64,000 nucleotides of DNA from Escherichia coli (GTDB lineage: Bacteria > Pseudomonadota > Gammaproteobacteria > Enterobacterales > Enterobacteriaceae): NCBI RefSeq assembly GCF_003334355.1, contig NZ_QOWP01000011.1; one strand, 5' to 3'. The position numbers and the translations under genes were made by a program. Shown in pieces: positions 13,639-19,807 of the stretch. The notes beneath the pieces were generated by a model. The model had not been told where the DNA came from, made no database searches, and worked only from the letters and a program-made list of their open reading frames with translations. Numbering within the stretch: position 1 is the stretch's first letter; every line of letters starts with the position of its first letter.

Positions 13639-16314
13639 TTAAGCGGATTTTTTCGCTTTTTTCTCAGCTTTAGCCGGAGCAGCTTCTTTCTTCGCTGCAG
13701 TTTCACCTTCTACATAATCACGACCGTAGTAGGTATCCAGCAGAATCTGTTTCAGCTCGGAGATCAGCGGGTAACGCGGGTTAGCGCCGGTGCACTGGTC
13801 ATCGAATGCATCTTCAGACAGTTTATCCACGTTCGCCAGGAAGTCTGCTTCCTGAACGCCAGCTTCACGGATAGATTTCGGAATACCCAGTTCAGCTTTC
13901 AGCGTTTCCAGCCATGCCAGCAGTTTCTCGATCTTAGCAGCAGTACGGTCGCCCGGTGCGCTCAGACCCAAGTGGTCGGCAATTTCAGCATAACGACGGC
14001 GAGCCTGCGGACGGTCATACTGGCTGAATGCAGTCTGCTTGGTCGGGTTGTCGTTCGCATTGTAGCGAATAACGTTACAAATCAGCAGGGCGTTTGCCAG
14101 ACCGTGCGGAATATGGAACTGGGAACCCAGTTTGTGCGCCATTGAGTGACATACACCCAGGAAGGCGTTCGCAAACGCGATACCCGCGATAGTCGCTGCA
14201 CTGTGAACACGTTCACGCGCTACCGGATTTTTAGACCCTTCGTGGTAGGACGCTGGCAGATATTCTTTCAGCAGTTTCAGTGCCTGCAGAGCCTGACCAT
14301 CAGAGAACTCAGATGCCAGTACAGAAACATAAGCTTCCATGGCGTGAGTTACTGCGTCCAGACCACCGAAAGCACACAGGGACTTCGGCATGTCCATAAC
14401 CAGGTTGGCGTCGACAATCGCCATATCCGGAGTCAGCGCATAGTCTGCCAGCGGATATTTCTGACCAGTAGCGTCGTCAGTTACAACCGCAAACGGAGTG
14501 ACTTCAGAACCTGTACCAGAAGTGGTGGTGACAGCGATCATTTTCGCTTTCACGCCCATTTTCGGGAACTTGTAGATACGTTTACGGATATCCATAAAGC
14601 GCAGCGCCAGCTCTTCGAAGTGAGTTTCCGGATGTTCGTACATAACCCACATGATCTTCGCGGCGTCCATCGGGGAACCACCACCCAGCGCGATAATCAC
14701 GTCTGGTTTGAAGGAGTTTGCCAGTTCTGCACCTTTACGAACGATGCTCAGGGTCGGGTCCGCTTCTACTTCGAAGAAGACTTCAGTTTCAACGCCTGCT
14801 GCTTTCAGTACGGAAGTGATCTGATCAGCATAACCATTGTTGAACAGGAAGCGGTCAGTCACGATGAGCGCACGTTTGTGGCCATCAGTAATCACTTCAT
14901 CCAGCGCGATTGGCAGGGAGCCACGGCGGAAGTAGATAGATTTCGGAAGTTTGTGCCACAACATGTTTTCAGCTCGCTTAGCAACGGTTTTCTTGTTGAT
15001 CAGGTGTTTCGGACCAACGTTTTCAGAGATGGAGTTACCACCCCAAGAACCACAACCCAGAGTCAGGGAAGGTGCGAGTTTGAAGTTATACAGGTCACCG
15101 ATACCACCCTGAGACGCTGGGGTGTTAATCAGGATACGCGCCGTTTTCATTTTCTGACCGAAGTAAGAAACGCGAGCCGGTTGGTTATCCTGGTCAGTGT
15201 ACAGGCAAGAGGTATGACCGATACCGCCCATAGCAACCAGTTTCTCTGCTTTTTCTACCGCGTCTTCGAAATCTTTAGCGCGGTACATTGCCAGAGTCGG
15301 GGACAGTTTTTCATGTGCGAACGGTTCGCTTTCATCAACAACGGTCACTTCACCGATCAGAATCTTGGTGTTTTCTGGTACAGAGAAGCCTGCCAGTTCA
15401 GCAATTTTATAGGCTGGCTGACCAACGATAGCCGCGTTCAGCGCACCGTTTTTCAGGATAACATCCTGAACAGCTTTCAGCTCTTTACCCTGCAACAGAT
15501 AGCCGCCGTGGGTTGCAAAACGTTCACGTACAGCATCATAAACAGAGTCAACAACAACAACAGACTGTTCAGAAGCACAGATTACGCCGTTGTCGAAGGT
15601 TTTGGACATCAGTACAGATGCAACTGCACGTTTGATATCAGCAGTTTCATCGATAACAACTGGAGTGTTGCCCGCGCCTACACCGATAGCTGGTTTACCG
15701 GAGCTGTATGCGGCTTTAACCATGCCCGGACCACCAGTCGCGAGGATCAGGTTGATGTCTGGGTGGTGCATCAGTGCGTTAGACAGTTCAACAGAAGGTT
15801 GATCGATCCAGCCGATCAGATCTTTCGGAGCACCGGCAGCGATAGCAGCCTGCAGAACGATATCAGCCGCTTTGTTGGTGGCATCTTTTGCACGCGGGTG
15901 CGGGGAGAAGATAATGGCGTTACGGGTCTTCAGACTGATCAGCGATTTGAAGATAGCAGTTGAAGTCGGGTTAGTGGTCGGAACGATACCGCAAATAATA
16001 CCGATTGGTTCAGCGATAGTGATGGTACCAAAAGTGTCGTCTTCAGACAGAACACCACAGGTTTTTTCATCTTTATAGGCGTTGTAGATATATTCAGAAG
16101 CAAAGTGGTTTTTGATCACTTTATCTTCGACGATACCCATGCCGGATTCGGCAACGGCCATTTTCGCGAGTGGGATTCGAGCATCTGCAGCAGCCAGAGC
16201 GGCGGCGCGGAAGATTTTGTCTACTTGCTCTTGAGTGAAACTGGCATATTCACGCTGGGCTTTTTTTACACGCTCTACGAGTGCGTTAAGTTCAGCGACA
16301 TTAGTAACAGCCAT
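13639..16314 (-). CDS. adhE: bifunctional acetaldehyde-CoA / alcohol dehydrogenase
   Basis: 891 aa; N-terminal aldehyde dehydrogenase and C-terminal iron-containing alcohol dehydrogenase domains; long untranslated leader upstream (16315..16790). Confidence 0.97.
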
Positions 16315-16790
16315 AATGCTCTCCTGATAATGTTAAACTTTTTTAGTAAATCATCTGCTCGAATACGAGAGTATAGTCAGTGCGGTGATGATTTGCTTAA
16401 CCTATGAAAATCAAAAGCTTACTCGCGCTCACACTCACTGTGATTTACTAAAAGAGTTTAAACATTAGAGTTATTATCTCTAATGCGTCACTTCCAGGTG
16501 GCGTAAGCAAGATTACTCACTTCTGGGTACTGATTACGTGATCCAAATCAAATTTTTGCAAAGCTGACACCTTTCAGCATCGCTTTTCGCCATTATAGCT
16601 AACAGTTAATAAATTGTAGTATGATTTGGTGGCTACATTAGCATGTTTTGCACAACTAGATAACAATAACGAATGATAGCAATTTTAAGTAGTTAGGAGG
16701 TGAAAAATGCTGTCAAAAGGCGTATTGTCAGCGCGTCTTTTCAACCTTATTTATGGCTAACATTATCCGGCTTTTGCTTCGGAGCTAACC

Positions 16791-17438
16791 GTGATTCAGA
16801 CCTTTTTTGATTTTCCCGTTTACTTCAAATTTTTCATCGGGTTATTTGCGCTGGTCAACCCGGTAGGGATTATTCCCGTCTTTATCAGCATGACCAGTTA
16901 TCAGACAGCGGCAGCGCGAAACAAAACTAACCTTACAGCCAACCTGTCTGTGGCCATTATCTTGTGGATCTCGCTTTTTCTCGGCGACACGATTCTGCAA
17001 CTTTTTGGTATATCAATTGATTCGTTCCGTATCGCCGGGGGCATCCTGGTGGTGACGATAGCGATGTCGATGATCAGCGGCAAGCTTGGCGAGGATAAAC
17101 AGAACAAGCAAGAAAAATCAGAAACCGCGGTACGTGAAAGCATTGGTGTGGTGCCATTGGCGTTGCCGTTGATGGCGGGGCCAGGGGCGATCAGTTCTAC
17201 CATCGTCTGGGGTACGCGTTATCACAGCATTAGCTATCTGTTTGGTTTCTTTGTGGCTATTGCATTGTTCGCTTTATGTTGCTGGGGATTGTTCCGCATG
17301 GCACCGTGGCTGGTACGGGTTTTACGCCAGACCGGCATCAACGTGATTACGCGTATTATGGGGCTATTGCTGATGGCATTGGGGATTGAATTTATCGTTA
17401 CTGGTATTAAGGGGATTTTCCCCGGCCTGCTTAATTAA
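16791..17438 (+). CDS. ychE: MarC-family (UPF0056) inner membrane protein
   Basis: 215 aa multi-pass hydrophobic ORF, GTG start. Confidence 0.88.
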   Translation: MIQTFFDFPVYFKFFIGLFALVNPVGIIPVFISMTSYQTAAARNKTNLTANLSVAIILWISLFLGDTILQLFGISIDSFRIAGGILVVTIAMSMISGKLGEDKQNKQEKSETAVRESIGVVPLALPLMAGPGAISSTIVWGTRYHSISYLFGFFVAIALFALCCWGLFRMAPWLVRVLRQTGINVITRIMGLLLMALGIEFIVTGIKGIFPGLLN

Positions 17439-18175
17439 TTCCTTTCAAATGAAACGGAGCTGCCATGCTCCGTTTACTTCGTCATTATTTTTACTTTGTT
17501 CCCGCGCAGTTATCAAAAGCAAAAGGAATAGGTAAAAATATTCTTCTCAAATTACAGTTAGTTATAAGGATTTCCTTAACTGCTTCTCCTCACCATCATG
17601 TTATTTTCGCCACATCATAATCCTGGGCTTGCTGAAGAATAATTGAAATGATATTAGTAATTCCACTGCCTTTGGTAGAGGAAAGTGCTAAATAATAATC
17701 AATTGTTAAATTATTGTGCATTTCACTACTGGAACTGTAATCAGAAAAGATAGACATGCTTAGCCAATCTCTATTTGATTGAATTGAAAGATGTTTGTTA
17801 AGGCATGGATGCAAGCTATAGATTCTGATACGGTCAATAAAAGAGAATTGCTTAACAATTTTGCAAAATGTATTGGCGAGTAAGAACCGCATTTGGTACT
17901 TTCCGGGCAACCGCCAGACGATTCTTTATTGGTAATGAGAATAATTAACAATTAAAGAGCGTCGCGAAAGAATAATGTGTCTCGACAGGGGAGACACAGT
18001 ACGAATCGACATAAGGTGATCGTCTGAATCACCAGAATAAATAAAGTCGGTGATAGTAATACGTAACGATAAAGTAACCTGACAGCAGAAAGTCTCCGAG
18101 CCTGTGCAGGGTCCCAATCCGGGATTACACATGCTGGTTAATACCAGTAATTATAATGAGGGAGTCCAAAAAACA

Positions 18176-19807
18176 ATGACCAACATCACCAAGAGAAGTT
18201 TAGTAGCAGCTGGCGTTCTGGCTGCGCTAATGGCAGGGAATGTCGCGCTGGCAGCTGATGTACCCGCAGGCGTCACACTGGCGGAAAAACAAACACTGGT
18301 ACGTAACAATGGTTCAGAAGTTCAGTCATTAGATCCGCACAAAATTGAAGGTGTTCCGGAGTCTAATATCAGCCGAGACCTGTTTGAAGGCTTACTGGTC
18401 AGCGATCTTGACGGTCATCCAGCACCTGGCGTCGCTGAATCCTGGGATAATAAAGACGCGAAAGTCTGGACCTTCCATTTGCGTAAAGATGCGAAATGGT
18501 CTGATGGCACGCCAGTCACAGCACAAGACTTTGTGTATAGCTGGCAACGTTCTGTTGATCCGAACACTGCTTCTCCGTATGCCAGTTATCTGCAATATGG
18601 GCATATCGCCGGTATTGATGAAATTCTTGAAGGGAAAAAACCGATTACCGATCTCGGCGTGAAAGCTATTGATGATCACACATTAGAAGTCACCTTAAGT
18701 GAACCCGTTCCGTACTTCTATAAATTACTTGTTCACCCATCAACTTCACCGGTGCCAAAAGCCGCTATCGAGAAATTCGGCGAAAAATGGACCCAGCCTG
18801 GTAATATCGTCACCAACGGTGCCTATACCTTAAAAGATTGGGTCGTAAACGAACGAATCGTTCTTGAACGCAGCCCGACCTACTGGAACAACGCGAAAAC
18901 CGTTATTAACCAGGTAACCTATTTGCCTATTGCTTCTGAAGTTACCGATGTCAACCGCTACCGTAGTGGTGAAATCGACATGACTTATAACAACATGCCG
19001 ATCGAATTGTTCCAGAAGCTGAAAAAAGAGATCCCGGACGAAGTTCACGTTGATCCATACCTGTGCACTTACTATTACGAAATTAACAACCAGAAACCGC
19101 CATTCAACGATGTGCGTGTGCGTACCGCACTGAAACTAGGTATGGACCGCGATATCATTGTTAATAAAGTGAAAGCGCAGGGCGACATGCCCGCCTATGG
19201 TTACACTCCACCGTATACTGATGGCGCAAAATTGACTCAGCCGGAATGGTTTGGCTGGAGCCAGGAAAAACGTAACGAAGAAGCGAAAAAACTGCTGGCT
19301 GAAGCGGGTTATACCGCAGACAAACCGTTGACCATCAACCTGTTGTATAACACCTCCGATCTGCATAAAAAGCTGGCGATTGCTGCCTCTTCATTGTGGA
19401 AGAAAAACATTGGTGTAAACGTCAAACTGGTTAACCAGGAGTGGAAAACGTTCCTCGACACCCGTCACCAGGGTACTTTTGATGTGGCCCGTGCAGGCTG
19501 GTGTGCTGACTACAACGAACCAACTTCCTTCCTGAACACCATGCTTTCGAACAGCTCGATGAATACCGCGCATTATAAGAGCCCGGCCTTTGACAGCATT
19601 ATGGCGGAAACGCTGAAAGTGACTGACGAGGCGCAGCGCACAGCTCTGTACACTAAAGCAGAACAACAGCTGGATAAGGATTCGGCCATTGTTCCTGTTT
19701 ATTACTACGTGAATGCGCGTCTGGTGAAACCGTGGGTTGGTGGCTATACCGGCAAAGATCCGCTGGATAATACCTATACCCGGAATATGTACATTGTGAA
19801 GCACTAA
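18176..19807 (+). CDS. oppA: oligopeptide ABC transporter periplasmic binding protein
   Basis: ORF track 18104..19807 trimmed to the ATG at 18176 (543 aa) preceded by RBS gagggag; signal peptide then SBP family 5 body. Confidence 0.95.
   Translation: MTNITKRSLVAAGVLAALMAGNVALAADVPAGVTLAEKQTLVRNNGSEVQSLDPHKIEGVPESNISRDLFEGLLVSDLDGHPAPGVAESWDNKDAKVWTFHLRKDAKWSDGTPVTAQDFVYSWQRSVDPNTASPYASYLQYGHIAGIDEILEGKKPITDLGVKAIDDHTLEVTLSEPVPYFYKLLVHPSTSPVPKAAIEKFGEKWTQPGNIVTNGAYTLKDWVVNERIVLERSPTYWNNAKTVINQVTYLPIASEVTDVNRYRSGEIDMTYNNMPIELFQKLKKEIPDEVHVDPYLCTYYYEINNQKPPFNDVRVRTALKLGMDRDIIVNKVKAQGDMPAYGYTPPYTDGAKLTQPEWFGWSQEKRNEEAKKLLAEAGYTADKPLTINLLYNTSDLHKKLAIAASSLWKKNIGVNVKLVNQEWKTFLDTRHQGTFDVARAGWCADYNEPTSFLNTMLSNSSMNTAHYKSPAFDSIMAETLKVTDEAQRTALYTKAEQQLDKDSAIVPVYYYVNARLVKPWVGGYTGKDPLDNTYTRNMYIVKH

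Follow-up and report, generated by a model that had tools for sequence, protein, structure and literature searches.

The window analysed here is a stretch of 64,000 nucleotides of Escherichia coli DNA, and the open reading frame (ORF) in question occupies 297 nt of its minus strand (17596..17892) between ychE and oppA. This ORF is very probably a chance stop-free frame opposite the oppA promoters P1 and P2 and the start of the oppA leader, and does not encode a functional protein. A chance ORF inside the long oppA leader/regulatory region was also the reading preferred in the original prediction, and it is supported by tests of the frame, of composition and of selection. The functional elements under the ORF are already known, and the minus strand is presumably not translated.

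The neighbouring genes are adhE (13639-16314, minus strand), ychT (16708-16761, plus strand), which is annotated in RefSeq directly 5' of ychE and encodes the 17-aa small protein YchT (b4771), ychE itself (16791-17438, plus strand) and oppA (18176-19807, plus strand). The ychE-oppA spacer spans 17439-18175 (737 bp). Its GC content is 32-37% overall and 0.32-0.345 in 200-bp windows across 17500-17899, compared with 0.45-0.52 in the flanking genes, so that the description of an AT-rich spacer with a minus-strand ORF is borne out by both the coordinates and the GC windows. A hairpin on the plus strand behind ychE, AAACGGAGC...GCTCCGTTT (17452..17475), is followed by a T-rich tract and resembles a terminator; among Escherichia species its stem is kept and its loop is variable. 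The ORF runs from an ATG at 17892-17890 to a TGA at 17598-17596 and has 98 codons, or 104 if a TTG at 17910 is taken as the start. The minus-strand sequence reads GGAAAG (17904-17899), TACCAA, ATG, and both the start codon and the Shine-Dalgarno-like motif at a 6-nt spacing can therefore be read in the sequence as originally reported.

The translation was said to have no recognisable domain, and sequence searches with it against Pfam, NCBIfam, PHROG and the PDB indeed gave no match. Protein searches with a word index over 5.8 billion proteins and with exhaustive HMMER over 1.84 billion cluster representatives recovered only variants or fragments of the same locus, from Escherichia, Shigella and one record labelled Enterobacter. 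The mean pLDDT of an AlphaFold2 model is 43, which is weak evidence because the model was made from a single sequence.

The ORF had been described as unannotated. This is correct for the curated record of K-12 MG1655, which has no gene at the locus and in which an IS5 element sits inside the ORF. It is incorrect elsewhere, since PGAP annotates the ORF as a "hypothetical protein" (WP_001211520/21 and variants) in most of the sampled RefSeq E. coli genomes. The PGAP calls in the spacer differ between near-identical genomes, which may have the 98-aa ORF, a 53-aa remnant, a 51-aa ORF on the plus strand or no call, and the 53-aa remnant is called even in genomes in which the long frame is intact. 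Such variation is typical of low-confidence ab initio predictions. At least one RefSeq genome has the 51-aa ORF (17465-17620, plus strand; hypothetical protein WP_001362935.1) annotated instead of the minus-strand ORF, and this is probably another spurious call. A literature search for the RefSeq protein accessions of the minus-strand ORF found no papers.

Conservation of the reading frame in related genomes had been proposed as a check. Homologous spacers were collected from 76 other Enterobacteriaceae species, and the ORF was projected from the homologous start codon through an alignment of 78 sequences. Only in E. coli proper does the frame stay open over 98 codons. In each of the 76 other species, among them five other Escherichia lineages, a stop codon interrupts it after 2-77 codons. 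The homologous segment measures 304-307 bp in most genera against 297-298 bp in Escherichia, and these lengths differ, for the most part, by a number not divisible by three. Within Escherichia, the near-invariant P1 block (CCTGGG-CTTGCTG) contains a 1-bp indel that shifts the frame in the species other than E. coli; since this indel lies inside a near-invariant block, the conservation there cannot be protein-coding. The ATG of the ORF is kept in 56 of the 78 species, although the ORF itself is not. The related spacers recovered are 665-880 bp long with 34-45% GC and contain alignable conserved blocks. Because the spacer is present at nearly equal length in all 78 Enterobacteriaceae spacers aligned, it is ancestral and not an acquired AT-rich island.

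No sign of purifying selection on a protein was found. When the window was compared with E. coli E500002 and the five other Escherichia lineages, Nei-Gojobori dN/dS in the frame of the ORF was 0.56-1.1, within the range of the other frames tested of the same DNA (0.34-1.73), whereas the flanking ychE and oppA gave 0.00-0.03 against the five Escherichia lineages. The dN/dS check that had been proposed thus returned values like those of non-coding frames. The GC contents of the three codon positions are flat in the ORF (0.33/0.35/0.33) compared with those of the genes in the window (0.60/0.41/0.54). A codon log-odds model trained on the long genes of the window gave the ORF 0.016 bits per codon, a score exceeded by 98% of equally long segments of real genes. 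Host-like codon usage, another of the proposed checks, is therefore lacking, and the ORF cannot be distinguished from AT-rich non-coding DNA by composition. A very young lineage-specific gene would likewise show a dN/dS near 1 and have no homologues, so that the evolutionary tests leave room for a weak and recent function.

The ORF has also been lost repeatedly within E. coli. The region was taken from 18 further genomes spread over the identity range, giving 19 strains in all, among which the O157:H7 representative has a TAA at codon 36 and the ST131 representative a TAG at codon 43. Complete genomes were searched with exact 41-nt queries centred on each allele, which are unable to seed a match where the allele is absent. 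The O157-type TAA was found in at least 435 and the ST131-type TAG in 552 of 5,426 genomes, and these two independent nonsense alleles together account for at least 987 genomes (about 18%). Roughly four-fifths of E. coli genomes have the ORF intact. In MG1655 (NC_000913.3), an IS5U element (insH21) is inserted at a CTAA target (17689..17692); it starts 254 bp past the end of ychE and divides both the ORF, near codon 67, and the P1 leader, near +25. An IS1 interrupts the ORF in strain Ecol_448 (about 17729). With nonsense haplotypes as well as IS5 and IS1 disruptions, the ORF is not maintained intact as a bona fide gene would be. A further IS1 is situated near the MicF site (about 18050) in one DH5alpha assembly, so that three independent IS insertions are seen in the spacer, and about 1.5% of the complete genomes have no contiguous spacer match.

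The 39 variant alleles of the ORF in the 19 strains comprise 26 nonsynonymous, 11 synonymous and two stop changes. The ratio of nonsynonymous to synonymous changes is near-identical across all six frames, and the three codon positions carry 11, 15 and 13 changes. Within E. coli, 32 of the 37 polymorphic sites of the ORF fall in a stretch of 114 bp (17719-17832). Strain E500002 alone differs at 22 of the 297 ORF positions, compared with only seven positions in the remaining spacer. This stretch seems either to have been imported by recombination or to be under very weak constraint.

What is conserved under the ORF fits the oppA promoters. A dual promoter, P1 and P2, with a 511-nt leader was described by Igarashi and colleagues in 1997, as cited in Carrier, Lalaouna & Masse 2023 (PMC9988348). 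Primer extension located two start sites, P1 (+1) and P2 (+246), and the same study mapped an RNase E site to +341 and MicF pairing to +372-392 (PMC9988348). Three anchors from that paper place this leader in the window. The primer of the P1-promoter fusion ends at 17665, the T7 template for the RNA "starting at +341" begins at 18005, and the MicF site (+372..+392) maps to 18036-18056. All three agree on 17665 as +1 and so identify the DNA as the oppA promoter-leader region. The P1 start is accurate to about 1 nt and gives a 5' UTR of 511 nt on the plus strand; the P2 start (+246 from P1) falls at 17910.

Upstream of P1 lies a conserved plus-strand element, TGTTATTTTCGCCACA (17599..17614), with the family consensus TGTTA-N6-TCACA in most genera. 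It forms a palindrome, TGTTA-N6-(T/C)CACA, centred about -58.5 from the P1 start, and it agrees with the CRP consensus at nine of ten positions in most genera and at eight of ten in E. coli. From the known consensus, it resembles a CRP half-site palindrome and is a candidate for one. The P1 core (17629..17657, plus strand) consists of a -35 element TTGCTG (17629-17634), a 17-nt spacer, a TG at 17649-17650 and a -10 element TATTAG (17652-17657). The P2 block (17839..17902, plus strand) includes an upstream part, AAAAGAGAATTG..TTAACAATTTTGCAAAATGT, a -35 element TTGGCG (17873-17878) and an extended -10 element TGgTACTTT (17894-17902), and its conservation in the family is about 90% or higher. 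Both promoters have the layout of sigma-70 promoters: TTGCTG-17-TATTAG with a TGn motif ends 8 nt before 17665, and TTGGCG-18-TACTTT with a TGn motif ends 8 nt before 17910. We infer the exact hexamer assignments from these positions, which are conserved at 70-90% or more in the 78 species and lie at the right distance from the published starts.

Further conserved elements are found in the leader. An early-leader block, AGAGGAAAGTGCTAAATAATAATCAATTGTTAAATTATTGTG (17679..17723, plus strand; +15 to +59 of the P1 transcript), reaches the conservation level of the promoters: in each 15-bp bin, 83-86% of species match E. coli. It may bind a protein or act as an RNA element. A conserved palindromic hairpin, TGTGTCTCGACAGGGGAGACACA (17976..17998, plus strand), is situated just 5' of the RNase E site at +341 (18005) and looks like a terminator on the minus strand. 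The MicF pairing site (18036..18056, plus strand) is conserved at 90%. Conservation under the ORF across the 78 species is strongly bimodal, being high at 17604-17723 and at 17844-17903 and at background between them. The central spacer of the P1 leader (17724..17828, plus strand), which is the middle of the ORF, is unconstrained in sequence, with an identity to E. coli of 25-35% except for one bin at 60%. The C-terminal 23 codons of the ORF overlie the P1 promoter and its upstream element, and the middle of the frame lies opposite +1..+228 of the P1 leader. The P2 block contains the complements of the ATG of the ORF (CAT, 17890-17892) and of its "Shine-Dalgarno" motif (CTTTCC, 17899-17904).

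Across many genera, 69 of the 78 spacers place the -10 blocks of P1 and P2 251-254 bp apart; in Escherichia the distance is 243-244 bp. The central ~105 bp between the promoters are saturated with substitutions, and the distance from P2 to the ATG of oppA is far more variable, mostly 243-309 bp. The steady P1-P2 distance suggests a constraint on spacing or phasing, for example via a nucleoprotein complex. In the conserved block upstream of P2, a perfect 10-bp palindrome, TTTTGCAAAA (ATTTGCAAAT in most other genera), occupies 17859-17868 with its centre at about -46.5, and a regulator may bind there. Position 17657 is a T in K-12 strains and a G in the window, in all other sampled E. coli and in all other Enterobacteriaceae. 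The T changes the P1 -10 element from TATTAG to TATTAT, which is nearer the consensus, and may be a K-12-specific promoter-up change for oppA. The same change is the sole amino-acid difference between WP_001211520 and WP_001211521.

Other candidate features of this DNA were rejected. A 14-aa peptide on the plus strand under the P1 block (ATG at 17598) would be broken too by the 1-bp indel in other Escherichia, and the ATG of a 30-aa plus-strand uORF (17791-17883) is not kept even within Escherichia. A genomic SELEX study lists a promoter "TTAACA-17-AAGAAT" at 17945-17973 (PMC3946193), and a consensus scan of the window finds the same site. It fits neither of the mapped oppA start sites.

A simple account of the ORF follows from this arrangement. 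The DNA serves the plus strand, as the upstream region and core of P1, the first ~228 nt of the 511-nt leader and the upstream half of P2. The two conserved ends of the ORF are the promoters P1 and P2, and its middle is a stretch that is free in sequence and constrained in length. Its ATG is the complement of a CAT in the P2 spacer, and its "Shine-Dalgarno" GGAAAG the complement of the P2 -10 region, TACTTTCC. The ATG is conserved in 56 of the 78 species without the ORF because the ATG and the "Shine-Dalgarno" motif complement the conserved P2. The frame would have happened to be open in the ancestor of E. coli. That most strains still have it reflects only the youth of E. coli, and nonsense mutations and IS insertions have already destroyed it repeatedly.

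The length of the ORF at first seems to speak for a gene. In dinucleotide shuffles of the spacer, the probability that the longest ORF reaches the observed length was ~0.02, and it was ~0.003 for the AT-rich core alone. On the other hand, 19 of the homologous spacers of the 76 other species hold an ORF of at least 98 aa, compared with 5.8 predicted by the shuffles, and the ORFs in these 19 spacers are found at different positions and on both strands and are non-homologous to one another. This excess shows that the dinucleotide-shuffle null is too strict. Since long ORFs are common in related spacers, the length alone is no evidence of a gene. The minus strand, across from the A-rich proximal oppA leader, holds most of these long ORFs, and a local skew in strand composition that depletes antisense stop codons is the likely cause of the excess of long antisense ORFs.

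Three other explanations were weighed against a chance ORF. According to the first, the ORF is a de novo proto-gene, in which ribosomes now and then translate an antisense RNA of the oppA leader into a non-essential, unselected peptide, the raw material for gene birth. This is very improbable, and an equally small chance is given to its more specific form, an E. coli-specific proto-gene that arises from spurious antisense transcription of the H-NS-bound leader, is neutral and is already decaying in O157 and ST131. The ORF is restricted to one lineage, and homologous DNA is present and closed in all outgroups, as the definition of such a proto-gene demands; the single lineage, the missing homologues and the neutral evolution are all as expected. 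AT-rich DNA commonly harbours spurious promoters, and one promoter-like match on the minus strand is found inside the ORF (17720-17692). However, this sole minus-strand site is downstream of the start codon, and the repeated loss of the ORF shows no benefit. The ORF is also absent, by coordinates and gene names, among the entries listed in the available part of the Ribo-RET supplement of Stringer et al. At this locus, the only entries in the PIRT-seq tables are those for ychE and oppA. Because a neutral proto-gene of recent origin would fail all of the evolutionary tests, the proto-gene reading keeps a small share of the probability. If it is true, the locus captures the birth and decay of a gene on top of two promoters.

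A real E. coli-specific coding gene, possibly silenced by H-NS and transcribed divergently from the P2 region with its ATG at 17892, is very unlikely. Such a gene would fit the length beyond shuffle expectation, the ATG with a purine-rich GGAAAG at the canonical 6-nt spacing, the PGAP gene calls in many genomes and the intact frame in roughly four-fifths of E. coli. Against this, the start codon and the "Shine-Dalgarno" motif are accounted for by conservation of P2. Nonsense alleles are fixed in two large lineages that together make up about 18% of genomes, IS elements disrupt the ORF elsewhere, and no sister species has kept the frame. The equality of dN/dS with that of non-coding frames and the flat GC content by codon position also count against a gene, and a promoter scan of the minus strand from 17893 to the 17976-17998 hairpin found nothing resembling a sigma-70 promoter. 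As for silencing, the ychE>oppA spacer is marked "HNS" in the genomic SELEX table (PMC3946193), and H-NS binding there would suit a silenced gene; it fits a regulatory region equally well. The spacer shows no AT-rich insertion relative to its syntenic relatives, as a xenogeneic islet would. The suggestion that the AT-rich pocket hides an H-NS-silenced small gene is thus not supported, because the spacer is ancestral to the family and the ORF is truncated in about 18% of E. coli genomes.

The last alternative is a non-coding antisense RNA, encoded on the minus strand by the conserved DNA and regulating oppA transcripts from P1, with the ORF incidental to it. It can practically be dismissed: both conserved blocks are in principle readable on either strand and a hairpin (17998-17976) looks like a terminator when read on the minus strand, but this hairpin is upstream and not downstream of the ORF on that strand, the blocks match plus-strand promoter geometry and the published starts exactly, an Rfam scan of 16300-18400 at E <= 1 returned only a meaningless miRNA match, and the sRNAs reported from the spacer are described as derived from the oppA 5' UTR, that is, from the plus strand.

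The reading as a chance ORF has consequences for curation. WP_001211520, WP_001211521, WP_001211524, WP_001211514 and the 53-aa WP_000051910 most likely describe no protein, and these RefSeq entries, annotated in many E. coli genomes, overlie the experimentally mapped oppA promoters P1 and P2. Two lessons are more general. A start codon and a Shine-Dalgarno-like motif that are conserved throughout a family can be the mere reverse complement of a conserved promoter, and dinucleotide shuffles can underestimate the frequency of long ORFs in real regulatory DNA.

The ORF can be compared with several known systems. De novo antisense or overlapping gene candidates have been proposed in E. coli, for example in EHEC, and these rest on expression or phenotype data. 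The ORF resembles them in being lineage-restricted, antisense to a known transcript and devoid of homologues. It differs in that it is known here from sequence alone and that, in O157:H7, it has a stop at codon 36. With acquired AT-rich genes silenced by H-NS it shares the AT-rich DNA and the reported H-NS binding in the spacer, whereas the spacer is ancestral and syntenic in all 78 species and the ORF has no coding signature. Spurious automated "hypothetical protein" calls in AT-rich intergenic DNA are like it in every respect considered, and no difference was found. These calls have no domain and no homologue outside the locus, their start choice is inconsistent, they are present or absent between near-identical genomes, and here the truncated remnant of one haplotype is still called a protein.

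RNAs have been reported from the same intergenic region, and they overlap the coordinates of the ORF. OppX, a sponge of MicF from the 5' UTR of oppABCDF in Salmonella, and the Hfq-dependent "ychE-oppA" sRNA reported from RNA-seq of E. coli are leader RNAs of the plus strand, unlike the minus-strand ORF. Carrier et al. detected no stable OppX-like fragments in E. coli (PMC9988348). The published oppA P1/P2 leader is the same DNA as that under the ORF, with +1, +246, +341 and +372-392 corresponding to 17665, 17910, 18005 and 18036-18056. On the plus strand the two differ only at the P1 -10 element, which is TATTAG in the window and TATTAT in K-12. The published description of this leader does not include the ORF, which sits on the opposite strand.
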